From an uncultured euryarchaeote (GTDB lineage Archaea; Thermoplasmatota; Poseidoniia; Poseidoniales; Poseidoniaceae), in assembly GCA_937892945.1 (NCBI GenBank), contig CALBIL010000096.1, positions 52,489 to 116,488 of the forward strand: a stretch of 64,000 nt of DNA, in the 5' to 3' direction. The position numbers and the translations under genes are program-made. This document shows positions 1,456 through 61,856 of this stretch, one piece after another. Numbering within the stretch: position 1 is the stretch's first letter; each line of letters starts with the position of its first letter. The notes beneath the pieces were generated by a model that saw only the letters and a program-made list of their open reading frames with translations, ran no database searches and was not told where the DNA came from.

Positions 1456-1658
1456 ACAATGTCCTCGATTCCCCTTGGTCGAAAATTAGACTGGGGATGT
1501 TCTTCGGACCAAGAGGAGGTTCTTAGATGGCACGCATCGAAGTTGTCAATTTCTCAAGCCAAAAACATATTTCCAACTTTTCACACGAGATACTGATGGA
1601 ATTTGACCATGTTGCTTATTGATGGTCGGGTATTGGGAAGAATACCGAGGAATTTACA

Positions 1659-2597: not shown

Positions 2598-3301
2598 TTG
2601 GATTCTCGAATGATGGCAAGTGAATAGGTTTGCCCTTGAGTGGTGATGTATTTTTCATCGATGGTCCCATTTTCGACACGTGTGAATTTTTTACCGCTTC
2701 GGCCACGTGAAATCATACGTGCAAGCACTTCTTGGCCTATGTAACATCCTTTGGCTGGGTGAACCAAGTGACTTAACCCAGTAGAAAGTGGATGATTGTT
2801 TTTGGAAATTTCAAATCCATTCCAAGGAATTTGATTCTCGATTCTCCAGTCATGGAAAGGTGCGGTTTCATCTGTAAACACACATTCGACATTGAGAGAA
2901 GCGATGAGAAGTGAATACTTTTCATCAATATATCCGTGTGTTACACCATCCAATGATTCAAATCGGCCAACATTTGAGTTGGTGATGCCATATTCGATGA
3001 CAAATATGTTTCTGGACGTCACATCAACAATCGTGACTTCTTGATCGAGAATACGTGGCGTAACATGTTTCAGTAACATGTCCAATTGTGATGTATGCGA
3101 TTGAACTGCGAGAAAATCTCCCATATGAAACACAGTGGCGAGGTCGATGATTTTAGCTTGTGTAGTCGTGAATACAGTTTGCCGCACTTCACCTTGAATC
3201 ATATCGATTATTTTATTCGATGACAAACCATCAATAAATTGCAGCGCATCTGCGCCTTGCCAAACTGTCAATGATGCATCATCGTAAGCCACTCGCGGCA
3301 T
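2591..3301 (-). CDS. ygfZ: YgfZ/GcvT-family folate-binding protein
   Basis: 236 aa. C-terminal KGCYIGQEVLARM matches the YgfZ signature K-G-C-Y/F-x-G-Q-E. ATG at 3301, 9 nt after the IscA-like stop. Confidence 0.75.
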   Translation of the reverse strand: MPRVAYDDASLTVWQGADALQFIDGLSSNKIIDMIQGEVRQTVFTTTQAKIIDLATVFHMGDFLAVQSHTSQLDMLLKHVTPRILDQEVTIVDVTSRNIFVIEYGITNSNVGRFESLDGVTHGYIDEKYSLLIASLNVECVFTDETAPFHDWRIENQIPWNGFEISKNNHPLSTGLSHLVHPAKGCYIGQEVLARMISRGRSGKKFTRVENGTIDEKYITTQGQTYSLAIIRESNQ

Positions 3302-3310
3302 AGAAGAACC

Positions 3311-3697
3311 TCAAGCGAAAGATTCGCCGCATCCACACGAAGATTCAGCATTTGGATTGTTAATTCTGAATCCGCCACCCATCAATCGGTCGACGTAATC
3401 AATTTCGATACCATCAAGGAGATGGCTTGAAGCGTTTGGGACTAATACTCTGAACCCATCAATGTTCACTTCTTGACAACTTTGGTCTGTCTCTTCGACA
3501 ATCTGTAAATCATACATGTAACCTGAACAACCACCGGATAAGACTCCTACTAACAGCGCCATTGAACGGTCATCACCGAACGCATCAACGAGCATTTCTT
3601 GTGCCTTTGATGAGATAGTTAAGTTGACATTGACCACTTCCGGAGTCATGAGTTGTACAGGGCCAGATGTCTCGCATGTACCGCAGTCCATGGGCAT
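3311..3697 (-). CDS. iscA: iron-sulfur cluster insertion protein, IscA/ErpA/HesB family
   Basis: GGCSGYMYDL ... NPNAESSCGCGESFA C-terminal signature. I trimmed the track ORF (3311-3868) to ATG 3697 because the longer form overlaps the upstream TPR gene. Confidence 0.85.
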   Translation of the reverse strand: MPMDCGTCETSGPVQLMTPEVVNVNLTISSKAQEMLVDAFGDDRSMALLVGVLSGGCSGYMYDLQIVEETDQSCQEVNIDGFRVLVPNASSHLLDGIEIDYVDRLMGGGFRINNPNAESSCGCGESFA

Positions 3698-3752: not shown

Positions 3753-6308
3753 TCATCGGCGTTTCTTTTTACGTTCAATTTCCTTAAGAAGAATCCCACA
3801 TCGGCGAATTTGTTCTTTCGCCCGCTTAATCTCTTCAGTTTCAAGACCTCGAGGGATTGATTGCTCAAAACATTTCATTGCATCTGGATAACGTTCCATT
3901 TCAGCATATGCACTGCCCATATTGTACAAGGTTTTTCCACGAACCTCAGAAGGTCGAATGAGCATGGCTTGATGATATGCTTCGACACATTTAGGATATT
4001 CTTCAAGATAATAGTATGCGTTACCTCGTCCGTTCAGTATTCGTATGATCATGTCATCATTCCCTGCAAATGACGGGAGTGCTCTGTCAAAAGAGGAAAG
4101 TGCTTCTCTAAACTTGCCTCCTTCAATCAAAGCGACTCCTTGATTGTACCACGCAACATCTTGGTTTGCAACAGAACTTGAATTAACTTCTGTATCGACA
4201 GTTGTGGAAGCCAATCGTTGTGCTTCAATTGCTGCTTGTGTCAAGTCAAAGGCTGGTTGCGTCGGTGTTTCAACAGCAACTGGTTGGACAGCCTGCGGCC
4301 GTTGTTTCAAGGCTTGAGCGGAATCAATGAGAAGTGATGGAGTATCGTCTACAGTCGGTTGAACTGTTTCTGAACTTTGTGGCTCCGGTTGTGTTTGAAG
4401 TCCGAGCGCATTCATGTAATAGTCAGTCTGTGATTCTTGAGGGTCAACTGGAGTTAACAGAAGTTGAGGTGTAGCTGATTCAACTGTCGTTTGCTCAACA
4501 ACAGCCGGTACGACTGGGGTCAGCACTGGAGCCGGCGTAGGCGTCGGTACAGGTGCGATGGATTCAACTTGAACGACTCCACTCAGTTCGTCAGCCTTGC
4601 GGTGGCACTTTTGGGCAGTTTCTAAATCGCCAGCGGATTCGAGTGAACGGGCTAGGCCCCTCCAAATCACTGGGTTTTGGCCATCCAATTTAATCATCGA
4701 TTTCCAGATTGTTACCGCCTGAACATCATTCTTTGCAGCGGTATGAGCCCGTGCATGGTATTCGGTTTCACCCTCACCCAGGTATCCAAGTGCTTCGTGT
4801 GCCAAATGTGGGCCCTCAGGGAGTGTAGGTGGAAGCCCATGGACTGATTCTAATACATTCGCTTCACCTTCTGCCAATTCGATAAGAATCCGAATAAATT
4901 CGTCTCGGACTTGATTCATCGGTTCAATTTGAAGAAGAGTTCGCGTTGAATTGAGATAGTTCTCGACATCTCCAGTTTGGTTGCAAAGTTGGCTGCACTT
5001 TATGGCCGCCTTCAAATAATCTGATTGAACATTCATCGCTTTCATATAGCATTCAATAGCGCGTGAAGATTCCCCTTTTCTCTGATATATGGAACCGAGA
5101 TTAAACCATCCTGACCCTTGGTTCGGATCAAGTGACTGCGCATGTACAAGTGCAGAAATTGCGTGATCATCGAGTTCGAGGCGAGCCATTGCCCCTCCAG
5201 CAATCCTCCATGCACCTGCGTGATCTGCAGCAATTGTCTTCAGATGCGGGCTGAGTAATTCCAGTGCACCCTGCGCATCACCTGAACGAATCATTTCCGT
5301 TGCTTCAGCGACTAAATCATCCATCACGAATGGTTTTTCAACAGGTTCTTCGATGATTTGTGGAGGTTGCTGAACAACTGGTTCTGCCACCAAGGCCGTC
5401 ACTTCTTGAATCTCTTGTGTAGCTGCGACAACTTCTGCTGCCGATTTGAGTTCTTGATATTCAAGATGCTGGTTTTCGTCTTCATCATGATGAATTGCCT
5501 CAGCCAATATTGCTTCTTTATTAGTGACTCCGACTTCTTTCATAACTTCAGCAACGTGCTGTTCGTCATAGGTTTGAGATGGCAACTGCATTGGCATCGA
5601 TTCAATTGGTATCTGCTTTCCACTTTCTGCACATCGGCTTTTCACATCTAACAATAACGGATGGCCAGGGAAGAAGTTCAATGCACGAACCGCCATTTCA
5701 TAGGCAGCTGCATCGTCTCCAATTCTTTCGAGTAAGGTCGCAATATTGGCAGTTGCAGGAGCGTTATCTGGATTGATATCGAGACAAATTTGGAATGCTT
5801 GACGAGCGCCACGTGCATCTTGCTCTGCTTCAAGTAAAACACCACGATTGAACCATGCCATGTCGCATGAAGGGTCTAATGCGATTGCCTTATTGAAGGC
5901 GGTAAGTGCTCCTTTCGAATCATTTTTCCGAGAGCATTCTTCTCCAAGTTGAAGTAGGAACTCTACGGAGTTTTCATCGTTGGAATCTTCTTCAAATTCA
6001 CTTTTTTGTTTTTGCTCAACAACCCATTTCTTGGCAGCATTTTGCAGTTCTTCTTCTTTCAAGTAATTATTTCCATCATTGTCCATCGAATGGGCAAAAG
6101 TTAGAAACCCTTCGCGGTCCGAAATAGAATGTTGATTAATTACGCGTTCGAAGACCTTCTCTGAATAGCCGATTGAGTTTTCATCGTCATGTCCAGTTTT
6201 GTCCCCTAATCCTGCTGAACGAAGTGCTGCGGCCATGGATTCGGCTACTGCATCAGATACAGCATTGGAATCTGTAGGGTTTGGGGATTCTGCATCGGTT
6301 CCGCTCAT
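3753..6308 (-). CDS. large cytoplasmic TPR-repeat protein with Pro/Thr/Val linker and two EF-hand-like loops
   Basis: 851 aa. Multiple 34-aa TPR-like units (for example AWFNRGVLLEAEQDARGARQAFQICLDINPDN and GWFNLGSIYQRKGESSRAIECYMKAMNVQSD). No signal peptide. ATG at 6308. Confidence 0.8.
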   Translation of the reverse strand: MSGTDAESPNPTDSNAVSDAVAESMAAALRSAGLGDKTGHDDENSIGYSEKVFERVINQHSISDREGFLTFAHSMDNDGNNYLKEEELQNAAKKWVVEQKQKSEFEEDSNDENSVEFLLQLGEECSRKNDSKGALTAFNKAIALDPSCDMAWFNRGVLLEAEQDARGARQAFQICLDINPDNAPATANIATLLERIGDDAAAYEMAVRALNFFPGHPLLLDVKSRCAESGKQIPIESMPMQLPSQTYDEQHVAEVMKEVGVTNKEAILAEAIHHDEDENQHLEYQELKSAAEVVAATQEIQEVTALVAEPVVQQPPQIIEEPVEKPFVMDDLVAEATEMIRSGDAQGALELLSPHLKTIAADHAGAWRIAGGAMARLELDDHAISALVHAQSLDPNQGSGWFNLGSIYQRKGESSRAIECYMKAMNVQSDYLKAAIKCSQLCNQTGDVENYLNSTRTLLQIEPMNQVRDEFIRILIELAEGEANVLESVHGLPPTLPEGPHLAHEALGYLGEGETEYHARAHTAAKNDVQAVTIWKSMIKLDGQNPVIWRGLARSLESAGDLETAQKCHRKADELSGVVQVESIAPVPTPTPAPVLTPVVPAVVEQTTVESATPQLLLTPVDPQESQTDYYMNALGLQTQPEPQSSETVQPTVDDTPSLLIDSAQALKQRPQAVQPVAVETPTQPAFDLTQAAIEAQRLASTTVDTEVNSSSVANQDVAWYNQGVALIEGGKFREALSSFDRALPSFAGNDDMIIRILNGRGNAYYYLEEYPKCVEAYHQAMLIRPSEVRGKTLYNMGSAYAEMERYPDAMKCFEQSIPRGLETEEIKRAKEQIRRCGILLKEIERKKKRR

Positions 6309-29831: not shown

Positions 29832-29907
29832 GGGTTCGTGGTCTAGGGGTTATGACGTCGCCTTGACATGGCGAAGATCGAGAGTTCAATTCTCTCCGAA
29901 CCCACCA
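29832..29907 (+). tRNA. tRNA-Val (anticodon GAC), CCA encoded
   Basis: Folded by hand. Acceptor GGGTTCG/CGAACCC, anticodon stem TCGCC/GGCGA with loop TTGACAT, T arm GAGAG-TTCAATT-CTCTC, 5-nt variable loop, discriminator A, then CCA. Confidence 0.95.
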
Positions 29908-29996: not shown

Positions 29997-30362
29997 TCAT
30001 TCCGAGAGATTCTCTGGTTCTGGAAGTTCAAGTTCATCGATATCGATTATCGATAATGGTTTTTCTTTTTCGTCAGACATTGAAAAGTCAGTCGAACCCC
30101 CTTCCCATGAAGCAATCTTCTCGCTTTCTTCGAATTCCTCTTCAGGTATTGCATGCTGATCTGAGATCGAATAGAGTGAAGGGTCGATAATCTCGCGCTC
30201 ATGGTTTGAACTTGGAAGGGGGGCTTCGCGTTCCTCGAGATGAATCCCCGAATGGAAGGTCCCACATTCCGAACAGCGAATACTGCCAATTTGTTCAATA
30301 CAGCCGCAAACCGGGCACGATGATTTACCCTTTAAAGACTCAAGTGGGTCGTGAGAGGGCAT
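29997..30362 (-). CDS. small acidic zinc-ribbon protein (121 aa)
   Basis: CPVCGCIEQIGSIRCSECG ribbon followed by a D/E-rich tail. ATG 30362 lies 4 nt after the stop of the EF-hand gene. The track start 30377 is TTG. Confidence 0.55.
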   Translation of the reverse strand: MPSHDPLESLKGKSSCPVCGCIEQIGSIRCSECGTFHSGIHLEEREAPLPSSNHEREIIDPSLYSISDQHAIPEEEFEESEKIASWEGGSTDFSMSDEKEKPLSIIDIDELELPEPENLSE

Positions 30363-30366
30363 CCTT

Positions 30367-32229
30367 TCACTCCACAAACATGTCTTCTTGATAGCCTGTT
30401 ACAAGGTCTCCAGTTCCATCTTCTTTGATAGTTACTGTCTCCTCGTCATCGTCAAACTCAATAATAACTCCAAAGACTTCCTCGTCATCTAACGAGATTC
30501 CGACGTGTGATCCAATGTCAATATCGTCAGCATCCCCATCATCGTCAACATCTTGTTCTTCTTCTGAATCTTCATCGTGTTCTTCTTCGGAATCTTCATC
30601 GGATTCATCTTCAGAATCTTCATCGTGTTCTTCTTCAGTATCTTCATCGGATTCATCATCAGAATCTTCATCGTTTGATTCTTCTGAACGAGCTTCATCG
30701 GTATCATCTTCGACTTCTTTCATAGCTTTGGCACGTGCTCGCCATCCAGGCACTACAGCGAGGTGAGTCGCAAGTGAGGCAAGAAGTCCAAGGCCACCAA
30801 GAACCATCATTATTATTCCATCTGCATAGAATCCGGCAGGCATCGACGAGGCCTCTCCGGAGAATGGAGTGAGTGAGTTTTTACATTCACCAACTTGAAC
30901 AGACGGGTCACAGGGATAGATATCACCTACAAGAATTTCGTTATGAGGGAGGCCGTATGCCGTTTCTAAGGCAACATTACCGCCAGTACCGTCTACAGCT
31001 AACGGTCCTATTCCGCCAAGTCCGTTGATTAGCCATGCAGCAATGAAAAGTCCAAATGCCAAATGAATGAGTGGCCAAATGATATCATTCCATTGCTTGC
31101 CCATCATTTTCCGTTGCATTTCAGTAGGGAATGGTTTGTCAACCTTCTTTGAAAGTCTCGAATCGTCATCGACTGCATCATCTGCATCTTCTAAAGATTC
31201 AAGCGCAGTAACGAATTCAATTATATCGATAGCACCGTCACCATCATCGTCAACATTTACAAGGAATGACTCAATGTCTTTCGAACTGACTTCAGAGTCA
31301 ATAAGTACTTCGATAGCGTTGGTAAATTCCTCTACAGTAACATTTCCATCGCCGTCTTTGTCGAGTGAATTGAAGAACCGACTTGGTGAATCGCCAGATT
31401 CATCCATGGCATCGGATATCAGATGTAACAATGAAATCGATTCGAATGTTTCTTCCTCGTCCTCCTCGTCCTCCTCGTCAACTTCTTCTTCATCGAAATC
31501 ATCTTCCATTTCTTCAAGGTCGGAGTCCTCATAATCTTCCGCGTTGTCAGATTCTTCATCAACTTCGGGTTCGAGTTCCGAGTCCTCAAATTCGTCATCA
31601 TCTTCCGATGAGTGTTCATCGTCAGGGTCATCGCCTTCTTCATCGTGTTCAGATTCTTCATCTTCCGCAGTTTCACTCTCAGTTTCGAGTTCGTCTTCAA
31701 TCGGGTCATCACTCGTTGCATCTTCCTCGACGTCCTTGAGAGGTGTACTTGCTTCATCCGAATCGCTCGAGTACGACTCGCCCGTGATTGTTTCATGTAA
31801 TTCGCCGAGGTCAATTTGACCATCGCCATCTTCATCGATTGTTTTTATTAAGCGTTCAACTTGCGAGGGTGGTAAATCAGCTAATTTAAGGCTAAGTAAA
31901 CCGGATTTCAATTCAGCCGAGTCGATTAATCCATCTCCGTCAGTATCGAACTTCTTGAAAAGGATCGGAATTGTGATTCCCGTCTCAGTAAGCCATTTTC
32001 TCAAGACATCAACGACGTCATCCGCAACAAATATTGTACCACAATGGCTGCATTTGGTTGAGTCTAAAGGCACGAGACCGTTACATGCGCCACATTCACC
32101 AAGTGATTCATCAGATACGCCGGAAAATGAAATATCACATTCAGGGCAGTTCTCGGAATTGAGTGGGACGATGGCCCTACATGCTCCACATTCGGCCATT
32201 GCAATTTCTTCTTTGGTTTCGTCAGACAT
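30367..32229 (-). CDS. membrane protein with double zinc ribbon, four EF-hand Ca2+-binding loops, polyacidic linkers and two TM helices
   Basis: Two CxxC...CxxC ribbons. EF loops DTDGDGLIDSAE, DEDGDGQIDLGE, DKDGDGNVTVEE and DDDGDGAIDIIE. Hydrophobic spans IIWPLIHLAFGLFIAAWLINGLGGIGPL and GIIMMVLGGLGLLASLATHLAVV. I prefer ATG 32229 (AGGTG 5 nt upstream) to ATG 32250. Confidence 0.8.
   Translation of the reverse strand: MSDETKEEIAMAECGACRAIVPLNSENCPECDISFSGVSDESLGECGACNGLVPLDSTKCSHCGTIFVADDVVDVLRKWLTETGITIPILFKKFDTDGDGLIDSAELKSGLLSLKLADLPPSQVERLIKTIDEDGDGQIDLGELHETITGESYSSDSDEASTPLKDVEEDATSDDPIEDELETESETAEDEESEHDEEGDDPDDEHSSEDDDEFEDSELEPEVDEESDNAEDYEDSDLEEMEDDFDEEEVDEEDEEDEEETFESISLLHLISDAMDESGDSPSRFFNSLDKDGDGNVTVEEFTNAIEVLIDSEVSSKDIESFLVNVDDDGDGAIDIIEFVTALESLEDADDAVDDDSRLSKKVDKPFPTEMQRKMMGKQWNDIIWPLIHLAFGLFIAAWLINGLGGIGPLAVDGTGGNVALETAYGLPHNEILVGDIYPCDPSVQVGECKNSLTPFSGEASSMPAGFYADGIIMMVLGGLGLLASLATHLAVVPGWRARAKAMKEVEDDTDEARSEESNDEDSDDESDEDTEEEHDEDSEDESDEDSEEEHDEDSEEEQDVDDDGDADDIDIGSHVGISLDDEEVFGVIIEFDDDEETVTIKEDGTGDLVTGYQEDMFVE
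30553..30672. repeat. about 48-nt tandem repeat (about 2.5 copies) encoding an EEEHDEDSEDESDEDS-type acidic tract
   Basis: GAATCTTCATCGTGTTCTTCTTC recurs at 30566 and 30614, and ATCTTCATCGG recurs at 30592 and 30640. Both give a 48-nt period. Confidence 0.7.
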
Positions 32230-32284
32230 TACCACACCTGCTCCTCCCATTGCATCTTCGGATATAATGATTCATAGACTTTGA

Positions 32285-33199
32285 ATGATGAACTCGCAAT
32301 ACGAGCAGTCGTATGCGCGGGGTGAGACGATCGAAAAAGGAAGAATATTTACCACAGAATTCGTGAGTGATGATGAAACGCTCGGCTGGGTTGACAAAGA
32401 AAGTCAATCAACCGAGGAACACATACTCTTGTTTTCGCGATTGCCTCATCGGCGGTTACTTGAGCACCTTGATATCAATTCAGTCGAAGCATATTGGCTC
32501 ACAGAAAGGGCTACTGAAGGCGCAATCCGTCCAGATATGATTGATATCCGAAACCTTATCGTGGGTCATCTTTCGAATCATGCCGGAATTGTAATTCTCG
32601 AAGGACTTGAATGGCTCATGACTCTTCATGGCGAAGATGCTGTTCTTTCATTCGTGCGAGAACTTCGCGAGTCCGTTTATAGAACTCAATGGTCAATCGT
32701 CATGCCAATCCGTTCATTAGCATTCGAAGCACTTTGGTTGGCGCGACTGCGCCGTGAAGCTCCAGCAACGAACCTTACATTACCAAATCGAGATACTGAA
32801 AGTGTGATGCATGCCGATATCGATTCTGCAGAGGTTATTGATGCTGAAATTGCATTAAAACCCATGGAAGTATTCGAAGATGGCTCGCCGCATTTGGTAA
32901 TGTTGTCGAGATTACCATCGACTGGGTTTACACTCCCATTACTACGCAAACGCATACTCCAATGGAGAAGGATGGGTCTTGATGTCTCTGAAGCCGAGGC
33001 TGCGTTAAGTTTCAAACCTGATGAAGCCTACGCTTTGTATTCTCTTGTTGAAGAAAAAGTCAGAAGAGCCGTGGAATTGGAGCAACATCTCAATACTTCC
33101 TCGGCTGGATTTTCAGCAACGGATGAAGCAACTGCACGTTTCCGAATCCGACAACTTACTGGCCTTGACGAACTTGAGAAGCAATTCTTTGAAGATTAA
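32285..33199 (+). CDS. DUF835-like domain protein with helical C-terminal extension
   Basis: HILLFSRLPHRRLLEH...AYWLTE...IRPDMIDIRNLIVGHLSNHAGIVILEGLEWLMTLHGEDAVLSFVRELRESVYRTQWSIVMPI follows the DUF835 pattern as I remember it (xItR..P ... WLt ... vvLLdGlEyLi..ngfe.vl.fl..lrd). Not verified by HMM. Confidence 0.55.
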   Translation: MMNSQYEQSYARGETIEKGRIFTTEFVSDDETLGWVDKESQSTEEHILLFSRLPHRRLLEHLDINSVEAYWLTERATEGAIRPDMIDIRNLIVGHLSNHAGIVILEGLEWLMTLHGEDAVLSFVRELRESVYRTQWSIVMPIRSLAFEALWLARLRREAPATNLTLPNRDTESVMHADIDSAEVIDAEIALKPMEVFEDGSPHLVMLSRLPSTGFTLPLLRKRILQWRRMGLDVSEAEAALSFKPDEAYALYSLVEEKVRRAVELEQHLNTSSAGFSATDEATARFRIRQLTGLDELEKQFFED

Positions 33200-34743
33200 C
33201 GGGGTAGACGGCCTACTTCAGCCTCAACTCTCGCTAACCATGTCCCAGTAAGAAGTTCGTTGGCAACAGCAATAATGTCTGCGCTCGTACTTCGGTCTCC
33301 GTCCAATGGTTTGACGACTGTTCGAATTCGTTGCTTCATGGCACAGACCACTTTTGAAGGTTGCACTTCATTGAATTCTAATGCTTCACATGCTACAATA
33401 AACTCACAGGCCAATACCTCCGCAAGGCGATTGGTTGCTTGAAGTAAATTCCAACATGCAGTGGCACCCATACTGACATGGTCTTCCTGGCCGGCTGAGG
33501 TCGAGGTTGAAAAGATGGAACGCGGTCCCGCATGTCCGTGAAGCTCTCCGAGCGATGCACCTGCAACATATTGAACAATCATCAAACCCGATTCAAGGCC
33601 AGAATCTTTCGCTAAAAAAGCGGGTAATCCACTGCGAGCAGGATCGAGCATCTGGTCGATTCTACGTTCTGAAATGGACCCGAGTTCAAACATTGCAGCT
33701 GTCATTGAATCGGCAGTTAATGCTAACACTTCTCCGTGGAAATTACCTTGTGAGATCACTTCATGTGGCCCCGGATTAGAAATATCGGGGAATATAAGTG
33801 GGTTATCAGTTGCACTGTTTAATTCAATATCCAAAGTATTCTGCAGTGAAGTAAGTCGTTCGTATATGGCTCCGTGGACTTGTGGCGCACATCGGAATGA
33901 ATATGCATCTTGGACTTGTTCGCAATTCGAATGGGATTCTATTATCGGTGAATCTTTGAGAATTGCGCGTATACGTTGAGCGATTCGTACTTGGCCGGGG
34001 TGGGGTCGGGCATGGTGGACTCGTTCATCTGAAGGTTTGACACTTGCCTTACGTGCTTCGATTGAAGTACAAAGGGCAAGGTCTGCATAGACCAATAAAT
34101 CTGCGAGACGTTGTTCTGCTAAAACTAAAAAACTACACATCTGACTTGTCCCATTGATGAGAGATAATCCGTCTTTAGCACGCAATTCAAGTGGAATTAA
34201 ACCATGCTCTTTCATTTGATTCAATGTCGGTTCAGTCCCATGAGTATCTGACAATACCTCTCCTTCACCAATAAGGCTCAATGCCATGTGGGAAAGAGGG
34301 GCTAAGTCGCCACTTGCGCCAAGACTTCCAATACGAGGGATTGCCGGAGTAATGTTGTAATTGAGGAAATTAACTAATTGTTGTAACACTTCAGGATGAA
34401 CTCCAGAATTCCCTTTCGAAAGTGAGTTGATACGTACCGTCATCATAGCCCGTACTGCTTCTTTTGACATGAGTTCCCCAATTGCGGTTGCGTGTGAACG
34501 AACTAAGTTGGTTTGCAACTGCGCTAAGTCTTCCGAAGAAATACGTTGGTGGACAAGGGCGCCGAATCCAGTATTGATTCCATAGACTGTTTCATCGTTC
34601 GACAAAATTCTTTCAACAACGGAACGTGCTGCTTCGATGCGAGGGATAGCATCGAGCGATACAGATACCTGTGCTCCACCATGAGCAATTCGCATTACTT
34701 CTGCTGCTGTAAGTGTATGTCCATCAAGTGAAATAATTGTCAT
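33196..34743 (-). CDS. hutH: histidine ammonia-lyase
   Basis: GSLGASGDLAPLSHMA (the Ala-Ser-Gly MIO-forming triad). ATGA overlap with the hutU stop. Confidence 0.95.
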   Translation of the reverse strand: MTIISLDGHTLTAAEVMRIAHGGAQVSVSLDAIPRIEAARSVVERILSNDETVYGINTGFGALVHQRISSEDLAQLQTNLVRSHATAIGELMSKEAVRAMMTVRINSLSKGNSGVHPEVLQQLVNFLNYNITPAIPRIGSLGASGDLAPLSHMALSLIGEGEVLSDTHGTEPTLNQMKEHGLIPLELRAKDGLSLINGTSQMCSFLVLAEQRLADLLVYADLALCTSIEARKASVKPSDERVHHARPHPGQVRIAQRIRAILKDSPIIESHSNCEQVQDAYSFRCAPQVHGAIYERLTSLQNTLDIELNSATDNPLIFPDISNPGPHEVISQGNFHGEVLALTADSMTAAMFELGSISERRIDQMLDPARSGLPAFLAKDSGLESGLMIVQYVAGASLGELHGHAGPRSIFSTSTSAGQEDHVSMGATACWNLLQATNRLAEVLACEFIVACEALEFNEVQPSKVVCAMKQRIRTVVKPLDGDRSTSADIIAVANELLTGTWLARVEAEVGRLPR

Positions 34744-36776
34744 TGTACATCCTCCTGGAATAATTCTTCGAGTAAGTCATCGTTCATGTGATTTGGCAAT
34801 GTGACTCGTAGCAGTGGCTCGGAATCCATCGCTCTTTGAATGGCAAACTCTGCACCCTCGTTACGTGCCCAGGCTCGACGAGCAACGCCATTGTTGACAT
34901 CCCAGTGCAACATTCGCTGAAGTTTCGATTCACACTCATCGCTTCCATCAAGCAGCATTCCAAATCCGCCATTTACGACTTCACCCCATCCTACGCCGCC
35001 ACCGTTGTGGAGGCTAACCCATGTAGCGCCACGGAATGCATCACCGACGAAATTTTGTACGGCCATATCTGCAGTTTGTATCGAACCATCGCGGATGTTT
35101 GCAGTTTCTCTGTATGGACTATCCGTACCTGAAACATCATGGTGATCTCTCCCGAGAACAATCGGGCCAGAGAGAAGACCATTACCAATGGCTGCATTCA
35201 TTGCAGAAGCAATTTTCCTTCGACCTTCGTCGTCAGCATACAAGATTCTTGCTTGACTCCCAACGACCATGTCATTTGCCCCTGCGCCACGAATCCATCG
35301 GATATTATCGATTAATTGCTGTCGAATTTCAAGAGGTGAACTTGGCAACATTTCTTCGAGAACTTGGCAAGCAATATCATCGGTAATTTTCAAATCTGCG
35401 GGGTCACCTGAACAACAAACCCATCGGTAGGGACCGAAACCGTAGTCAAAACATATTGGACCCATGATATCTTCAACATAACTCGGATATCGAAATCCAC
35501 CTTCTTCCGTCATAACATCTGCTCCAGCGCGACTTGCTTCAAGTAAAAACGCATTTCCGTAATCCCAGAAATACATTCCGTTCTCAGACATTTTATTGAT
35601 CGCATCCGCATGGCGCCGGAGCGTTGAACGTACTTCATCGGCAAAACGTTCTGGCTCGTCTGAAAGCATAGACGCAGCATCGTCATAGGAATGGCCTACC
35701 GGGAAGTACCCTCCTTGGAAGGGGTTGTGTAAACTGGTTTGGTCACTACCAAGATCTACCGATATATCGCGCTCGACTAATCGTTCCCAAAGTTCGACAA
35801 TGTTGCCGATGTAACCGATTGAAAGAGGAGATTTACTTTCTGCCGCCGCAACCATTTGGTCGATGGCATCATCAACATCATCGGTTACAGTTGTAAGCCA
35901 ACCTTGTTCATGTCGTTTATGAGCTGCATGTGAATTTGATTCAGCAACAATACAAGAGGCACCGGCAATAACCGCTGCCTTGGCTTGCGCCCCAGACATT
36001 CCTCCGAGTCCTGAGGTGACAAATGTAACACCACCAAGACCCTCGTCACCACCAAGCCCGAGATGAGAACGTGCCGCATTTAGAAGAGTTATGGTCGTAC
36101 CATGGACGATTCCTTGTGGACCAATATACATGTATGAACCCGCAGTCATTTGACCGTATTGCGTGACTCCAAGTGCGTTCATCCGTTCGTAATTATCTTG
36201 AGATGATGCATTTGGGATGACCATTCCGTTGGTAACAATGACTCGAGGTGCGTCAGGTAATGAGGGGAAGAGTCCGAGTGGGTGGCCCGAGTAAATGACA
36301 AGCGTTTGTGATTCCGTCATGTTGCAAAGATATGCCATAACCAGTCGATATTGAGCCCAGTTTTGGAAGACTGAGCCGTTGCCGCCATACGTGATAAGTT
36401 CGTGTGGGAATTGAGCAACAGCCGGGTCGAGATTATTTTGAATCATCAACATAATTGATGCTGCTTGACTGCATTTGGCTGGATAAGCGTCGATTGGATG
36501 CGCCCGCATTTCATATCCCGTGGGCCGGTAACGCCACATAATAATTCGGCCAAATGAATTTAATTCTCCCAAAAACTCTCTTGCGAGTACTTTGTGTTGA
36601 TCGTTTGGGAAATAGCGTAATGCGTTACGAAGGGCTAGTTTCTTCTCTTGTGGAGTGAGTATCTGGCGCCGCGGGGGTGCGTGGTCAACAGTATCATCCC
36701 ATTTGGGGCAGGGTGGGATGGTATCAGGTATACCTTCACCCAGACTCATCCAAAGTGCAGATGTTTTGGCCCCCAT
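34740..36776 (-). CDS. hutU: urocanate hydratase (long, about 680-aa form)
   Basis: LALRNALRYFP, GGMSGAQAKA, GPQGIVHGT and LHNGGGVGWGE motifs. Confidence 0.95.
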   Translation of the reverse strand: MGAKTSALWMSLGEGIPDTIPPCPKWDDTVDHAPPRRQILTPQEKKLALRNALRYFPNDQHKVLAREFLGELNSFGRIIMWRYRPTGYEMRAHPIDAYPAKCSQAASIMLMIQNNLDPAVAQFPHELITYGGNGSVFQNWAQYRLVMAYLCNMTESQTLVIYSGHPLGLFPSLPDAPRVIVTNGMVIPNASSQDNYERMNALGVTQYGQMTAGSYMYIGPQGIVHGTTITLLNAARSHLGLGGDEGLGGVTFVTSGLGGMSGAQAKAAVIAGASCIVAESNSHAAHKRHEQGWLTTVTDDVDDAIDQMVAAAESKSPLSIGYIGNIVELWERLVERDISVDLGSDQTSLHNPFQGGYFPVGHSYDDAASMLSDEPERFADEVRSTLRRHADAINKMSENGMYFWDYGNAFLLEASRAGADVMTEEGGFRYPSYVEDIMGPICFDYGFGPYRWVCCSGDPADLKITDDIACQVLEEMLPSSPLEIRQQLIDNIRWIRGAGANDMVVGSQARILYADDEGRRKIASAMNAAIGNGLLSGPIVLGRDHHDVSGTDSPYRETANIRDGSIQTADMAVQNFVGDAFRGATWVSLHNGGGVGWGEVVNGGFGMLLDGSDECESKLQRMLHWDVNNGVARRAWARNEGAEFAIQRAMDSEPLLRVTLPNHMNDDLLEELFQEDVQ

Positions 36777-43683: not shown

Positions 43684-44730
43684 ATGGAAGCGATAGTTGA
43701 ATGCGTACCGAATATCTCTGAGGGCCGTGATTCTGATAAAATCAACCGGATCATATCGGTCGTCCTCGGCATTGATGGATGTGCTGTACTGGGTGTAGAG
43801 CCGGACAGCGATTACAATAGAACTGTAATCACCATTGCAGGTGAGCCAGAAGCCGTTAAAGAGGCTGCATTTTTGCTTATTCAAAAGGCAACTGAAGAAA
43901 TCGATATGACTGCGCATGAAGGCGAACACCCACGTCTTGGTGCAGTTGATGTTTGTCCGTTTGTCCCGTTGAAAGGGTTCAGTATGGATGACTGCGTCAA
44001 ATTGGCTCATTCTTTAGCCCAACGCGTTGGAGATGAATGTAATGTCCCGACATTCTTGTATGGCGCAGCATCTCTCAATGAAGAGAAGAATTTACTTTCA
44101 ACAATTCGCAAAGGTCAATATGAAGGCTTAGAAGCGCGGTTAAGCGGTGGCGAAACACCTCATTCTGAGCACACACGGTTTCCAGATCATGGGCCAAAAG
44201 AATGGACTGAGCAAGCAAAACGCTCTGGTGGAATCACGATTGGAGCGCGTGGAATCTTAGTTGCATACAACGTCAATATAGACGAACCTGATGCAGTTGT
44301 AGCGAAGAAAATAGCCTCACTTGTTCGATCAACAGGACGCCTCATCAAGCGACCCGACGGCAGAAAAATGCGAATCAGTGGAGTTTTACCAATGGTGCAA
44401 GGGATGGGTGTTTCACTTGAAACTCATGGAATAAGTCAAGTTTCAATGAATTTACGAGATGTCGAACAATGTCCTATGCATGTAGCCTATGAAGCTTGCA
44501 AAAGTATTGCAAACGACCATGGTATTGTAGCGCCAGGAAGTGAACTTGTTGGATTAGTCCCTCTCGAAGCAATGCTGGTGTCTGGTCGCTGGTATGCAGC
44601 AGAAGGAGAAACGGATGAACACGTACTCGTGAAGGCAGCAATAGAAGGATTAGGATTAAGTCAACTTGAACCGTTTGCACCTGGAAAAAGAATAATTGAA
44701 TGGGCTTTGCTTGAGGCGGTGAATCGATGA
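43684..44730 (+). CDS. ftcD: glutamate formimidoyltransferase
   Basis: The N-terminus MEAIVECVPNISEGRD, plus GEHPRLGAVDVCPFVP, is the formiminotransferase signature. Confidence 0.9.
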   Translation: MEAIVECVPNISEGRDSDKINRIISVVLGIDGCAVLGVEPDSDYNRTVITIAGEPEAVKEAAFLLIQKATEEIDMTAHEGEHPRLGAVDVCPFVPLKGFSMDDCVKLAHSLAQRVGDECNVPTFLYGAASLNEEKNLLSTIRKGQYEGLEARLSGGETPHSEHTRFPDHGPKEWTEQAKRSGGITIGARGILVAYNVNIDEPDAVVAKKIASLVRSTGRLIKRPDGRKMRISGVLPMVQGMGVSLETHGISQVSMNLRDVEQCPMHVAYEACKSIANDHGIVAPGSELVGLVPLEAMLVSGRWYAAEGETDEHVLVKAAIEGLGLSQLEPFAPGKRIIEWALLEAVNR

Positions 44731-45356
44731 ATTGGATGGATTTGACTCTTCGTGAGTTTCAAGATGCTTTGGCATCGTCCGACCCCACTCCTGGTGGCGG
44801 AACTGCTGCTGCTGTCGCATTGGGTCAAGCAACTGCTCTTACTCGAATGGTTGCTGAATTAACTTTAGGTAAAGACAAATGGCAAGAAGGTTGGAATTCT
44901 GCTGAAAAAGCATTAGCCATTGCCGAAAAGACATACGCCCGTTCTGGTGAACTCGCTCAACTTGACAGTGAGGCATTTGACGAAGTTATGGCGTCGTTCC
45001 GACTCCCCAAGTCAAGTGATGATGAAGTTCAGGTGCGCCGGAACAGCATACGACAGGCGACTCTTAAGGCATCAGAGATCCCTTACGAAACCGTCGTTCT
45101 TGGGATGGAGCTACTTGCATGCCAAGAAGCGTTAGCAGTTCATGGAAATGCAAATGCAGTATCGGATGTCGGCGTTGCAGCTCTTTTAGCCAGTGCTGCA
45201 GTCAAAGGTGCCCTGTTCAATGTAGAAATAAATCTCCAGTCATTACCAGTTGAGATGGGAACAGAAATGCGAACGCAAGTGCCCGGGATACGAATGGAAT
45301 GCAGTGAAGTTTCTCGAAAGATTATGCATGCGGTTCATGAGCGGATGAGTCAATGA
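44727..45356 (+). CDS. formimidoyltetrahydrofolate cyclodeaminase
   Basis: FQDALASSDPTPGGGTAAAVALGQATAL is the cyclodeaminase N-terminal motif. ATGA overlap with the transferase stop. Confidence 0.85.
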   Translation: MNWMDLTLREFQDALASSDPTPGGGTAAAVALGQATALTRMVAELTLGKDKWQEGWNSAEKALAIAEKTYARSGELAQLDSEAFDEVMASFRLPKSSDDEVQVRRNSIRQATLKASEIPYETVVLGMELLACQEALAVHGNANAVSDVGVAALLASAAVKGALFNVEINLQSLPVEMGTEMRTQVPGIRMECSEVSRKIMHAVHERMSQ

Positions 45357-47813: not shown

Positions 47814-48848
47814 ATGGCAATGACCACCTTAATCCTGTATGCATCACTCGCTCTCGGAGTCTCCTTTCTCTGCTCTATTTTAGAAGCAGTAGTTCTTTCA
47901 ATACCTCACACGCACATCGCCGTATTGGAAAAAGAGGGGAAGAAAAGTGGTGCTGTATGGGCGAATCTCAAAGAAGATGATGCTGTTAAGCCACTAACTG
48001 CAATCCTAACACTCAATACAATAGCGCACACAATGGGAGCTGCTGGTGTCGGTTCAGAAGTTCAATCTATTTGGGGCGAAAGTGCTCTTACCGTTGCCTC
48101 TATTGTCCTCACAATTGCGGTATTATTCTTGTCAGAAATCATACCAAAAACGCTAGGGACTGCATACTGGAAGAAATTGGCACCTTTTACTGGGAAAGTT
48201 TTGAATGTTTTGATTCGACTTTTAGTGATTTTAATCGTCCCAATTCAAGCACTCAAAGCGGTGTTACCTAAAGGCGACCATGCATTGGTTACACGAGATG
48301 ATGTTGCAGCACTCGCCGACCTTGGTGGTGAAGAAGGGATCATCGAGGAAGATGAAGGAAAAGTCATTCAAAACTTGCTCAAACTTCGTGAGATTAAAGT
48401 GGTCGATATTATGACGCCTCGAGTTGTTATGACTGCATTTAGTTTGTCAAGTACCGTCAAAGAAGTACTCGATGAGCACAAAATCATTCGTGTGTCGCGT
48501 ATTCCGGTCTATGATAATACAATCGACGATGCGTCAGGTATCGTAATTCGTTCGGAAATACTCATGGCTGCCAGCCGAGATGAGTGGGAATCCCCTATGC
48601 GTGATTTCAAGAAATCAGTGATCGCCCTCCCATCAACTGCAAATGTAGATGAAGTACTCGAAATGTTCCTTGAAAAACGTCAGCAATTTGCATTGGTCCA
48701 AGACGAATTCGGTGGAACTTCTGGTGTTGTTACAATGGAAGACGTATTGGAAACACTCTTGGGCGAGGAAATTGTAGATGAGCTCGATGAAGTTGATGAC
48801 ATGCGAGAACTTGCGCGTGAACAAGCCGACTTAGGTGAGCAAGATTGA
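47814..48848 (+). CDS. CNNM/CorC-type transporter (DUF21 membrane domain plus CBS pair)
   Basis: N-terminal four-helix hydrophobic domain, then VVDIMTPR...IPVYD... and ALVQDEFGGTSGVVTMEDVLE CBS motifs. TAGGAG lies upstream of ATG 47814. Confidence 0.85.
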   Translation: MAMTTLILYASLALGVSFLCSILEAVVLSIPHTHIAVLEKEGKKSGAVWANLKEDDAVKPLTAILTLNTIAHTMGAAGVGSEVQSIWGESALTVASIVLTIAVLFLSEIIPKTLGTAYWKKLAPFTGKVLNVLIRLLVILIVPIQALKAVLPKGDHALVTRDDVAALADLGGEEGIIEEDEGKVIQNLLKLREIKVVDIMTPRVVMTAFSLSSTVKEVLDEHKIIRVSRIPVYDNTIDDASGIVIRSEILMAASRDEWESPMRDFKKSVIALPSTANVDEVLEMFLEKRQQFALVQDEFGGTSGVVTMEDVLETLLGEEIVDELDEVDDMRELAREQADLGEQD

Positions 48849-54482: not shown

Positions 54483-54597
54483 GATGCTCCCACATGGGGG
54501 ACCTTGATGAACCAACCGCCGGCATTCCACAACGATTAACGAAACTGTGCGTCAAGTATTCAAGTGGAGTCGACCAAGAGAGTATGGGGCAGAGGGC

Positions 54598-56733
54598 ATG
54601 GTGGCGGGACTTTCCAAATTCCAAACCCATATCTGCCTTATACTGACCTGTTTATTCATCCTCCCCTCTGCAGCCGGACAATATTCGGACATTGCTTATC
54701 TTGATGTTACGACCGTATCTTCAGCGACAGAATCACAGGCTGTCGACATGAACCCTAATGGTACATATCTTGCAAGTGCTTATGGTGGTCTCGTGGCGAT
54801 TCATGAAGTCAATTCTCTGGAACTCATGATGTCATTCACGGTAGAGAGTGATGTATTGGATGTCGAGTTTTCACCCGATGGTCAATTCTTAGCGTTCTCA
54901 CGTTCAGGCCAGGCTGCAGATACAGACACAATTCAATTGATTGATGTGCATGCAATGGAACTGACCTCAAAACAACACGGGTCGAATTCACAACCCGAAA
55001 AGATTCAATGGTCACCAGATGGAAGTCTGTTGGCTGTTCCGAACAGCAACAATGGTATTGACATGTTGCGCATCACAGATATGGAGGTTGAGAGAACGCT
55101 CACTGGAGAGCACAATGCACGTATTACATGCATCGCTTTTTCCTCTCTTGGCTACACCTTGACGGGTGATGAAGCAGGACGTCTCGTCATGTGGACGCCT
55201 CAAGGCCACTCTACTGAAAAAGAATGGAACCTCTATTCAAAGATTAAATCCTGCAGTTTTGATTCGGTTGATGAACGGTTTGCAGTGTTGACTACAGATG
55301 GAGAGTTAAGCACATGGCTCTTTGACGGTGGATCAATTTCTAAAGTTACCTTCGATGGAGGGGGTGGGTTACATTGGTCTTCAGATGACAATTCAATTCA
55401 TGTGTTAGAAGTTGGAAGTACTCCGCGTGTAATCACTGTTGATTCGGAGAATTTAGAAGTTTCCATCTCGATTTATCTCGCACATCAAGCGCTTGATTTT
55501 ACTCTGAGAGAAAACCAATTTGGAACTCGTGAGATGGTGTTTGTAGCCACAAATACTGGACATATTGCCGTCTATGGTGCAACGGCCCTCCCCATTGGGT
55601 ACGGTGAAAATGGAGCTGACCTCGATGGAGATAATGTTCCTGACTCTTATGATGGCGATGATGATGGGGACGCCATACTTGATGAAAACGACAACAAGTG
55701 CCAAGATGTTGAACTTCAATGTAGCAAATCCCCTAATATTGAAACCATACGTCATGTTGAGATCATAATAGATTCTACTTCATTCCAAATTAAAGACACC
55801 TTTACTTTGGACTCTCGTACATCTTCGGCATTAAGGAATCTATCGAGGGGGTCATTGATTGGCGATATTAAATTGAGCCAAGAGGAGGCGGATTTCTTAT
55901 CGGAGACTATCTGTGAAAATATGGATCAAAATCACTATGTAAGTTCATGGACAAATGTTATTCTTCTTTCGTCCGGACAACTGCAAGACGGATATGTCGA
56001 CTGTCAGATTGAAAGAGGCATGGTACTTACTCCAAAAAATGATTACAGTACGCATATCGCATTCACCTATAGCCTGACCTTTAATTTAAGTGACTCGATG
56101 ACTTATCCCTTTGAATTCACTTTACAATCCCAACCATCTGCTACCGATGCATCACTTGCCCAACACGCACAGATGCACCCCCTTGATGTCTCAGTCCATA
56201 GTACGAATTCTCAATCACTCTATTGGTCACCATGGTGGGTCATCGAAGGTGAACTTTCATTCACATTGGAGGAAGAAATGGAGCCTGAACCGAGTGTTTC
56301 AGAAAAAATATCGGAGATACTCATTTCTTATCCAATACTTTTTGTCCCGATACTGGGACTTCTCGCAGCTGGTATTGTTTATATTATTCGAATACAGAAT
56401 TCAATTGATATGGATTTTGATGATGAACACCATCCAAACGTGAAAGAAGAGGTAGGAGATGAATCCGAAGAGCCTTATGAAGAACCTGTTATGACAGATG
56501 AACCAGTTATTCAAGCACCTGCCAAACCCAGAAGAAAAGCCAAACAATCACCCCTTGGAACTGATGGCCCGATTACAAAAGTGAAACGGAAACGACTTGA
56601 TAGCGTCGTATCGGAACCAAAAACAGTTTCGAAAAAGAAGACAGTATCAAAGAAAAAAGTGGTCGTAGAATCTAAAATTAAAAAAGTGATAAAAAAACGC
56701 CGTGTCGTCACATACTCAGATGCCGAAGAGTAA
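54598..56733 (+). CDS. secreted/anchored beta-propeller (WD40/PD40-like) protein with TSP3-like Ca2+-binding repeat, C-terminal TM and Lys-rich tail
   Basis: ATG 54598 gives the signal-like MVAGLSKFQTHICLILTCLFILPSAAG. Repeated FSPDGQFLAF, WSPDGSLLAV and IAFSSLGYTLTGDEAGRLVMW blades. DLDGDNVPDSYDGDDDGDAILDENDNKC. TM ILFVPILGLLAAGIVYII. Confidence 0.7.
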   Translation: MVAGLSKFQTHICLILTCLFILPSAAGQYSDIAYLDVTTVSSATESQAVDMNPNGTYLASAYGGLVAIHEVNSLELMMSFTVESDVLDVEFSPDGQFLAFSRSGQAADTDTIQLIDVHAMELTSKQHGSNSQPEKIQWSPDGSLLAVPNSNNGIDMLRITDMEVERTLTGEHNARITCIAFSSLGYTLTGDEAGRLVMWTPQGHSTEKEWNLYSKIKSCSFDSVDERFAVLTTDGELSTWLFDGGSISKVTFDGGGGLHWSSDDNSIHVLEVGSTPRVITVDSENLEVSISIYLAHQALDFTLRENQFGTREMVFVATNTGHIAVYGATALPIGYGENGADLDGDNVPDSYDGDDDGDAILDENDNKCQDVELQCSKSPNIETIRHVEIIIDSTSFQIKDTFTLDSRTSSALRNLSRGSLIGDIKLSQEEADFLSETICENMDQNHYVSSWTNVILLSSGQLQDGYVDCQIERGMVLTPKNDYSTHIAFTYSLTFNLSDSMTYPFEFTLQSQPSATDASLAQHAQMHPLDVSVHSTNSQSLYWSPWWVIEGELSFTLEEEMEPEPSVSEKISEILISYPILFVPILGLLAAGIVYIIRIQNSIDMDFDDEHHPNVKEEVGDESEEPYEEPVMTDEPVIQAPAKPRRKAKQSPLGTDGPITKVKRKRLDSVVSEPKTVSKKKTVSKKKVVVESKIKKVIKKRRVVTYSDAEE

Positions 56734-61734: not shown

Positions 61735-61754
61735 AAAAAAGACCCCTCGGAAGA

Positions 61755-61768
61755 ACCGAATGTTCGGT
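61755..61768. promoter_or_regulatory. inverted repeat ACCGAA-TG-TTCGGT in the ATPase/OPT divergent control region
   Basis: Read directly from the sequence. It lies 21 nt upstream of ATPase ATG 61734, between a TATA-like TTATTATCATAA (minus strand, about 61783-61796) and the SD. Confidence 0.3.
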
Positions 61769-61856
61769 GGTAAGAGGGTGGACTTATGATAATAATGGTG
61801 GGGGTCCCTTTTGTTGCGAGCGATGTATTCAACAACTGCCTTGAGTTGGAGATGAT

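Follow-up and report, generated by a model that had tools for sequence, protein, structure and literature searches.

A predicted membrane-bound EF-hand protein family of Poseidoniales archaea and its candidate role in Ca2+ sensing

Eukaryotic proteins of the STIM1, LETM1 and Miro type join an EF-hand sensor covalently to a membrane segment, and calsequestrin is a folded luminal protein of thioredoxin-like domains. To our knowledge, Ca2+ signalling is barely documented in archaea, where few canonical calmodulin-type EF-hand pairs are known. Here we analyse a gene, together with its neighbours, in a 64,000-nucleotide stretch of DNA (hereafter the window) from an uncultured euryarchaeote of the family Poseidoniaceae (GenBank assembly GCA_937892945.1, contig CALBIL010000096.1, positions 52,489 to 116,488). 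The encoded protein combines two putative N-terminal zinc ribbons, two EF-hand pairs, long acidic tracts, a predicted transmembrane hairpin with a cysteine-bearing loop and a C-terminal module predicted to form a beta-barrel. Marine Group II archaea, the order Poseidoniales, are abundant in the surface ocean and uncultured.

Among prokaryotic proteins, EfhP (PA4107) of Pseudomonas aeruginosa carries two EF hands, binds Ca2+ with a dissociation constant of 13.7 uM, exposes hydrophobic surface upon Ca2+ binding and has a predicted periplasmic location; its Ca2+ binding is lost upon mutation at the +X and -Z positions (PMC9132961). For the archaea considered here, gene modules specific to Poseidoniaceae and Thalassarchaeaceae have been said, in a passing remark, to contain calcium-binding domains (PMC9258230), and our literature search combining EF-hand or calcium with Poseidoniales or Marine Group II returned nothing beyond that remark.

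Domain architecture and conservation

The original prediction, made from the sequence of the window, had placed four EF-hand loops at nucleotides 31912-31947, 31801-31836, 31327-31362 and 31216-31251, and we recovered all four as matches to PROSITE PS00018 (amino acids (aa) 102-114, 139-151, 297-309 and 334-346; residue numbers count from Met1 of a 627-aa open reading frame (ORF) at 30367..32250 on the minus strand). The loops form two pairs, and the proposed loop-to-loop spacing of 37 residues is found in both (loop starts at aa 102 and 139, and at aa 297 and 334), the corresponding spacing in calmodulin being 36. Furthermore, the Pfam EF-hand models exceed their gathering scores, with E = 1.1e-19 for EF-hand_1 (68.9 bits against a cut-off of 25.4) and E = 3.4e-17 for EF-hand_7, which matches in two stretches (63 bits against a cut-off of 30), and EF-hand_6, EF-hand_5 and EF-hand_8 likewise score above theirs. 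In the AlphaFold2 model, helices flank each loop and short beta bridges form within the loops, with predicted local distance difference test (pLDDT) values of 75-87 for the EF pairs (77-87 for pair 2). On the evidence of the hidden Markov models, the loop sequences and the paired helix-loop-helix arrangement, the protein belongs to the EF-hand superfamily and is predicted to bind Ca2+. We dropped a chance or artefactual origin of the motifs, since four of the five PS00018 matches in the six-frame translation of all 64 kb fall inside this ORF and the ORF is conserved in 54 species. An NCBIfam match to XopAW (33.8 bits, cut-off 120) was discarded, as it reflects the shared EF hands only.

Among 5.8 billion proteins searched, well over 100 full-length relatives share 57-97% identity with the window protein. 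All named homologues are from Candidatus Poseidoniaceae or Poseidoniales, which agrees with the archaeal assignment made from the sequence alone. In a scan using one genome per GTDB species, we found 54 loci, located in Poseidoniales or unclassified euryarchaeal metagenome-assembled genomes, with one exception binned as Salinimicrobium; one orthologue lies in the Marine Group II assembly CM001443.1. The family is restricted to Poseidoniales (Marine Group II). The contig binned as Salinimicrobium, a member of the Bacteroidota (CAXRAI010000071.1, locus L054), shows the complete archaeal gene order, running from urocanase to methylmalonyl-CoA mutase, and is presumably a mis-binned Poseidoniales contig.

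The relatives bear names such as 'EF-hand domain-containing protein' at NCBI and 'Ca2+-binding EF-hand superfamily protein / RNA polymerase subunit RPABC4...' at JGI. Because the family is already in the databases, auto-annotated and uncharacterised, we do not present it as the discovery of an unknown gene. The novelty claimed earlier therefore stands in one respect, as neither the PDB sequences nor the literature search yielded a characterised protein of this architecture, but not in the other, as hundreds of orthologues had already been deposited with automatic annotation. The whole architecture, the module formed by the hairpin and its Cys loop, the acidic Tudor-like barrel and a conserved three-gene unit appear to be undescribed.

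The loop ligands had been named as a point on which the prediction could fail, and we found them kept over 130-138 family members. Position 1 is D and position 12 is E, each in at least 99% of members for all four loops, and positions 3, 5 and 9 are D, N, S or T in at least 97%; G prevails at position 6 and position 8 holds I, V or L, while positions 2, 7 and 11 vary freely. Judged from the alignments, this per-position pattern is the signature of selection for metal coordination. Conservation extends beyond the ligands: in an alignment of 20 sequences (A1), aa 78-157, which hold EF pair 1, are almost wholly invariant, including the non-ligand segment LADLPPSQVERL between the two loops. Across species, the region comprising the zinc ribbons and EF pair 1 is 50-93% identical, near the values for Kae1 and urocanase of the same loci.

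The motifs of the two putative N-terminal zinc ribbons are present as described, with CxxC at aa 21, 35, 53 and 67. All their cysteines are invariant in alignment A1, and the four CxxC motifs occur in 138 of the 141 full-length family proteins. The Pfam zinc-ribbon models fall short of their thresholds here, DZR (PF12773) at 16.9 bits against 27.3 and UPF0547 (PF10571) at 20.8 against 29; precomputed matches to DZR or UPF0547 exist on several orthologues. The ribbon region is strongly acidic, and its pLDDT stays below 50 in the full-length model.

At the other end of the protein, what had been called a short beta-like module does have beta structure, but it is predicted to be a complete Tudor/KOW/SH3-like barrel. 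For the C-terminal 55 residues, AlphaFold2 with a 21-sequence alignment (A6) gave five strands at a pLDDT of 88.6. Foldseek against the PDB matched this model to Agenet, to the Tudor domains of SMN, PHF1 and TDRD3 and to the KOW domain of Spt5 (TM-score 0.72-0.80, root-mean-square deviation 1.2-2.3 A, E ~1e-2), with sequence identities of 10-23%. Sub-threshold Pfam matches fall on the same segment (RimP SH3 best, at 1.5e-4 and in 10 of 21 members; Tudor at 0.027; LSM at 0.0054), and its top match among PDB sequences is LSm5 at E = 0.19. Since the Foldseek placement agrees with these recurrent weak matches, we take the module to be an SH3-like barrel of unusual acidity. The last ~50 residues are invariant or nearly so in alignment A1; among the invariant ones are F593, F599, Y620 and F625, aromatic residues that might bear on a Tudor-type cage for methyl-lysine or methyl-arginine.

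Topology, proposed function and alternatives

The hairpin had been noted as two hydrophobic helices that bracket a loop of ~64 aa with two Cys, and it was recovered as such: the helices span ~aa 390-412 and 477-500, and the 64 residues between them include C447 and C456. Its description as a membrane anchor is right in that it is a membrane hairpin, but falls short in that the hairpin ranks with the best-conserved regions and is a module in itself. W392, P393, H396 and N409 of the first helix are invariant within Poseidoniaceae. The juxtamembrane segments on either side are the sole basic patches of the protein and contain their own invariant residues, namely F374, P375, M382, M383, K385, W387, N388 and D389 in the first and W503, R504, R506 and K508 through V513 in the second (alignment A1).

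We found no match to the hairpin and loop in Pfam or among PDB sequences, and a profile of the hairpin (alignment A2) run against 1.84 billion cluster representatives found just 53 clusters. A Pfam match to PFF1_TM (E = 0.0071) spans part of the second helix and the acidic tail, and was set aside as probably compositional. Two basic proteins, P0148 and P0154, hold two tandem copies of the hairpin and no EF hands. The presence of the hairpin and Cys loop in such EF-less proteins marks them as an independent module, and the tandem duplicates suggest that hairpins probably pair. The core of the loop common to the family and the EF-less relatives reads DG.GG ... Y.CD...Q...C ... P.G.Y; with the EF-less relatives included, the loop is the most conserved core of the module, with G, G, Y, C, D, Q, C and P invariant. 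On these comparisons, we read the two-helix hairpin with its Cys loop as a conserved functional module that is probably oligomeric, and not as a passive anchor.

Proteins with tandem hairpins (P0148, at 1541-3460 of locus L060; P0324, in L061; P0154, at 1671-3590 of L064) are basic, have 610-640 aa and are without zinc ribbons. Downstream of their genes lies a 211-aa ORF that starts with a zinc-knuckle-like CxxC...C, followed by a gene for a VWA protein.

Six lysines or arginines precede the first helix, four follow the second and one lies in the 64-aa loop, and the protein is without a signal peptide. By the positive-inside rule, these counts would put the loop outside the cell and the N- and C-termini in the cytoplasm. 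The eight zinc-ribbon cysteines are on the N-terminal side of the hairpin, and the loop contains a conserved Cys pair suited to a disulfide.

With moderate confidence, we propose that the protein is a membrane-embedded cytoplasmic Ca2+ sensor or scaffold, a reading in which domain content, conservation, lineage restriction and gene neighbourhood are observed, and topology, Ca2+ binding, sensor role and partners are all predicted. Under this hypothesis, the large N-terminal part and the C-terminal tail would both face the cytoplasm, and the protein would amount to a membrane-tethered calmodulin divided into two halves, in which the EF pairs are the lobes that bind Ca2+ through their DxDxDG...E loops and acidic disordered spacers join the lobes to each other and to the membrane. 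The double zinc ribbon and the Tudor/SH3-like barrel would supply surfaces for protein binding or docking. Ca2+ binding would shift the conformation of the lobes and hence their contacts, which may be made in cis, with the pair of invariant basic segments beside the membrane, or in trans, with the products of two flanking genes, a DUF835 protein of signalling type and a small zinc-ribbon protein. We prefer a sensor or scaffold over a Ca2+ store because non-ligand surfaces are nearly invariant and the ribbons and EF pair 1 are conserved to the degree of Kae1 and urocanase, and because the acidic tracts are free to drift, with repeat slippage altering them.

Several observations weigh against the sensor or scaffold proposal. 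The strict number of EF loops per protein ranges from 2 to 7 (exactly 4 in 87 of 141 full-length proteins), with an extra pair inside the first acidic linker or in the tail of some orthologues and one of the two pairs lost in a few divergent members, and such a variable number of pairs fits a modular binder more easily than a finely tuned switch. Conservation of the basic juxtamembrane segments might reflect no more than a role in setting topology or in contacting lipids. A region of ~14 kb is colinear across the order, so that the adjacency of the DUF835 gene is weaker evidence than it appears. Finally, the full-length AlphaFold2 model has a mean pLDDT of 53; the EF pairs are confident and the transmembrane helices moderate, and the zinc ribbons, the extracellular loop (pLDDT below 50) and the full-length arrangement are modelled at low confidence.

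An alternative is that the protein serves as a high-capacity buffer of Ca2+ or other divalent cations, cytoplasmic or close to the membrane, with low-affinity binding by the acidic tracts and a few high-affinity sites in the EF hands, which would protect a cell living in seawater at ~10 mM Ca2+. Composition speaks for it: aspartate and glutamate (D+E) make up 32% of the protein against a median of 13% over 46 ORFs of the window, there are two long tracts rich in D, E and S, and the acidity is kept in all family members (median D+E 0.31). The first linker had been described as made almost entirely of D, E and S, which is right as to its richness but slightly generous, D+E+S being 70% over aa 161-275. 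In the tail, the 48-nucleotide (nt) tandem repeat is indeed there (30556-30688, 2.8 copies, 88% matches by Tandem Repeats Finder), and repeat expansion, by altering tract length, would tune the capacity of a buffer. However, both tracts are unalignable and variable in length in the 20-sequence alignment, while the structured modules are nearly invariant. Whole repeats are inserted or deleted even between the window protein and a 97% identical relative (P0001), which points to fast repeat expansion and contraction. The protein also shows no thioredoxin-like calsequestrin fold in Pfam or in the AlphaFold2 model, nor does a calsequestrin-type domain match in Pfam or the PDB sequences. A single-copy membrane protein would offer little bulk capacity unless very abundant, and a pure buffer would have no use for invariant non-ligand surfaces, zinc ribbons and a Tudor-like domain. 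We consider such a buffer unlikely, and the likeness of the acidic tracts to calsequestrin in the original prediction is weak, as the tracts are unconserved in sequence and length, predicted to be disordered, evolving by repeat slippage and, by the positive-inside rule, facing the cytoplasm.

Conservation of the hairpin bears on a further alternative, a Ca2+-regulated membrane conduit in which the oligomerised hairpin forms a pore gated by the tethered lobes, as calmodulin gates SK and KCNQ channels. The hairpin and loop are highly conserved, polar residues lie within the helices (H396, N409, D477 and H496 within Poseidoniaceae) beside Gly-rich packing motifs, the tandem hairpins of the EF-less relatives suggest hairpin-hairpin assembly, and the basic amphipathic juxtamembrane segments seem to resemble calmodulin targets. 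Yet the intramembrane histidines become Y, Q or L in divergent members, a replacement that also led us to drop an M2-like His/Trp pore. There is no similarity to any channel in the PDB or Pfam, the loop could not be modelled, and two transmembrane helices with a 64-aa loop are not diagnostic of a channel. On balance, a conduit seems somewhat less probable still than the buffer.

The protein might instead use its terminal domains to hold a basic macromolecular partner, for example ribosomal proteins, chromatin proteins or the transcription machinery, at the membrane, the acidic tracts acting as nucleic-acid mimics and Ca2+ as a modulator. This would fit the RPABC4/Spt4-like label that JGI gives to the ribbons and the similarity of the C-terminal fold to Spt5 KOW, Sm-like and Tudor domains. 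We find it improbable, as direct nucleic-acid binding fits poorly with a Tudor-like domain and ribbon region that are both strongly acidic, the fold matches reach only E ~1e-2 with 10-23% identity, and next to the three conserved genes we identified none for the transcription or translation machinery, the conserved flanks being histidine-utilisation genes upstream and ABM, amidohydrolase and Kae1 genes downstream. An inverted topology, with the EF hands and acidic tracts outside, permanently Ca2+-loaded and in a structural or cell-surface role, would find parallels in EfhP, predicted to be periplasmic (PMC9132961), and in the many prokaryotic DxDxDG Ca2+ sites that are extracellular (PMC3123361), but is very improbable given the lack of a signal peptide for an acidic 390-aa N-terminal domain that this topology would require to be moved across the membrane, the excess of K/R on the flanks (6 and 4) over the loop (1), and the placing of eight ribbon cysteines in an oxidising milieu with the conserved loop Cys pair in the cytoplasm.

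Gene start, neighbourhood and feature coordinates

A scripted check of motifs, hydropathy and composition agreed with the earlier description of the ORF features in every detail checked. The list of ORFs gives a minus-strand ORF of 627 aa at 30367..32250, in which position 32229 corresponds to Met8. The choice of 32229 as the start proved correct: a TATA-like box and AGGTGTG are conserved before Met8, and the ATG at 32250 is not kept across orthologous loci, for which reason the longer start was dropped. The element CATGAATCATTATATCC is kept 30-45 nt upstream of Met8 in 20 of the 21 loci compared. Its quasi-palindromic TATA-like core (32262-32268) lies 17-23 nt from the ATG of the divergent DUF835 gene and ~35 nt from that of the EF-hand gene. 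The intergenic region between them (32230-32284) is very short, ~55 bp, and its one TATA-like element suggests, from sequence and position, a single shared bidirectional promoter element. The DUF835 gene may be leaderless, with the EF-hand gene preceded by AGGTGTG (32233-32239).

Upstream, the DUF835 gene is adjacent and divergent to the EF-hand gene in all loci that extend that far. Its product matches DUF835 (PF05763) at 51.4 bits against a cut-off of 33.1, and at 61.4 bits in one divergent lineage; a search of PDB sequences with it gave no matches. DUF835 has been described as 'iKaiC' (inactivated-KaiC), an output domain of archaeal response regulators (PMC5847659).

Downstream, a gene for a small zinc-ribbon protein directly follows the EF-hand gene in every locus that reaches that far, the most divergent included. 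It starts 4-20 nt past the EF-hand stop codon across loci, a distance at which the two genes are probably translationally coupled. The small protein has the motifs CPxC..RCxEC, IDPSLYSL and WxGGSTDF and 461 homologues, all unnamed or 'hypothetical', the named ones being from Poseidoniales; a Pfam scan gave no significant match for it.

Across the 54 species loci the gene order is molybdopterin oxidoreductase, MFS transporter, urocanase, histidine ammonia-lyase, DUF835, EF-hand, small zinc-ribbon, ABM, amidohydrolase, Kae1, hypothetical, FKBP and methylmalonyl-CoA mutase. On the most divergent contigs an AlaX-like gene replaces the downstream genes, and the small zinc-ribbon gene is still 3' of the EF-hand gene. 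Conservation of the neighbours, a check proposed with the original prediction, thus holds for the arrangement of DUF835, EF-hand and small zinc-ribbon genes in all loci examined, including the divergent lineages. This arrangement, the short gap before the small gene, the TATA-like element shared with the DUF835 gene and the output-domain role of DUF835 speak for the two neighbours as candidate partners of the EF-hand protein.

A bolder and doubtful extension of the sensor proposal is that the three genes constitute a self-contained archaeal Ca2+ signalling unit, in which the hairpin would sense or conduct at the surface, the lobes would read cytoplasmic Ca2+ and the KaiC-type hub would receive the signal. 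If this were true, the three-gene unit would be a calmodulin-style second-messenger pathway native to a very abundant order of oceanic archaea.

Elsewhere in the window, a gene for a P2A-type P-type ATPase of 1018 aa lies at 58846-61902 on the minus strand. Its best NCBIfam matches are PMR1-type/SERCA-type Ca2+ ATPases (694 bits, below the equivalog cut-off of 798), which makes it a probable Ca2+ exporter, and such an exporter would fit a low cytoplasmic Ca2+. A CNNM/CBS (CorC-like) divalent-cation transporter is encoded at 47814-48848 (plus strand). The histidine ammonia-lyase and urocanase genes (33196-36776, minus strand) adjoin the DUF835 gene, the convergent DUF835 and lyase stop codons overlapping by 4 nt, and formiminotransferase and cyclodeaminase genes follow ~9 kb beyond them (43684-45356, plus strand). 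A tRNA-Val gene with anticodon GAC (29832-29907, plus strand; ARAGORN and Rfam) sits between the small zinc-ribbon and ABM-domain genes. The window also encodes a WD40 beta-propeller protein of 728 aa (54547-56733, plus strand) and a TPR protein of 851 aa (3753-6308, minus strand). Coordinates of the EF-hand gene, its domains and its immediate neighbours are collected in Table 1.

Table 1. Features of the EF-hand gene and adjacent sequence, in window coordinates
Feature	Coordinates	Strand	Details
EF-hand membrane protein coding sequence	30367..32229	-	620 aa, stop codon included in coordinates; starts at Met8 of the 627-aa ORF
Putative zinc ribbon 1, aa 21-38	32137..32190	-	CGAC-x10-CPEC; cysteines invariant; Pfam DZR and Zn_ribbon_15 below cut-off
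Putative zinc ribbon 2, aa 53-70	32041..32094	-	CGAC-x10-CSHC; Pfam UPF0547 E = 4.3e-4, below cut-off
EF-hand pair 1, aa 94-156	31783..31971	-	loops aa 102-113 and 139-150; Pfam EF-hand_7 aa 97-153; PS00018
Acidic disordered linker 1, aa 161-272	31435..31770	-	58% D+E, 12% S; pLDDT <50
EF-hand pair 2, aa 274-359	31174..31431	-	loops aa 297-308 and 334-345; second EF-hand_7 stretch; PS00018
Basic juxtamembrane segment 1, aa 367-389	31084..31152	-	SKKVDKPFPTEMQRKMMGKQWND; 6 K/R
Transmembrane helix 1, aa 390-412	31015..31083	-	hydropathy; model helix 385-410
Predicted extracellular loop, aa 413-476	30823..31014	-	C447 and C456; motifs VDGTGG, YPCDP..VQ.GEC.NSLTPF, SSMPAGFY
Transmembrane helix 2, aa 477-500	30751..30822	-	hydropathy; model helix 474-523
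Basic juxtamembrane segment 2, aa 501-513	30712..30750	-	PGWRARAKAMKEV; 4 K/R
Acidic disordered tail, aa 514-574	30529..30711	-	holds the 48-nt tandem repeat; pLDDT <50; variable in orthologues
Predicted C-terminal Tudor/KOW/SH3-like beta-barrel, aa 575-627	30370..30528	-	AlphaFold2 and Foldseek
Small acidic zinc-ribbon protein	29997..30362	-	121 aa; starts 5 nt after the EF-hand stop codon
DUF835 protein (inactivated KaiC-like)	32285..33199	+	304 aa; divergent; Pfam DUF835 E = 1.2e-13
Conserved AT-rich TATA-like element	32260..32272	.	ggatataatgatt; between the divergent DUF835 and EF-hand genes
AGGTGTG, Shine-Dalgarno-like	32233..32239	-	6-12 nt before the Met8 ATG; conserved in 20/21 loci; putative function

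Significance and comparison with known systems

The analysis places canonical EF-hand pairs in a gene of all 54 recovered Poseidoniales species genomes, defines two unannotated modules for domain databases, the two-helix hairpin with its Cys loop and the acidic Tudor-like barrel, and names a candidate set of partners, the DUF835/inactivated-KaiC protein and the small zinc-ribbon protein. Expression of the soluble N-terminal half should be straightforward, so that affinity, switching and partners are accessible to testing even in the absence of a culture. Should the protein, contrary to the sensor reading, prove to be no more than a buffer or a structural protein, the significance is modest.

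Among described systems, calmodulin is the one to which the EF-hand regions align. Pair 2 aligns to residues 14-81 of its N-lobe and pair 1 to residues 85-156 of its C-lobe, with whole-protein E values down to 5e-14, and both proteins have canonical DxDxDG...E loops at nearly equal pair spacing. However, calmodulin is a soluble protein of ~150 aa with a short central helix, whereas the archaeal protein has 620 aa, is predicted to be membrane-bound, carries extra domains and varies in the number of its pairs. Its lobes are ~135 residues apart (aa 157-290), and aa 161-272 of this interval are an acidic disordered tract in the place of the short central helix.

With calsequestrin the protein shares a very high D/E content, but calsequestrin is folded and thioredoxin-like, whereas the archaeal protein has acidic parts that are disordered and little conserved, change through repeats and have a predicted cytoplasmic location. 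EfhP is the nearest characterised prokaryotic analogue in concept, being prokaryotic, associated with the cell envelope and equipped with canonical EF hands; it differs in having a single EF pair and no zinc ribbons, acidic tracts, hairpin or Tudor-like domain, so that the similarity is that of the EF motif only. STIM1, LETM1 and Miro show no sequence kinship to it outside the EF hands, have other topologies and partner domains (SAM, GTPase, LETM) and are without a double zinc ribbon, a two-helix/Cys-loop module or a Tudor-like barrel. The same architecture recurs in the deposited Poseidoniales orthologues, which are 57-97% identical and uncharacterised. Since the defining features of both calmodulin and calsequestrin were looked for and are absent, we assign the protein to neither, but its mode of action may resemble that of calmodulin.

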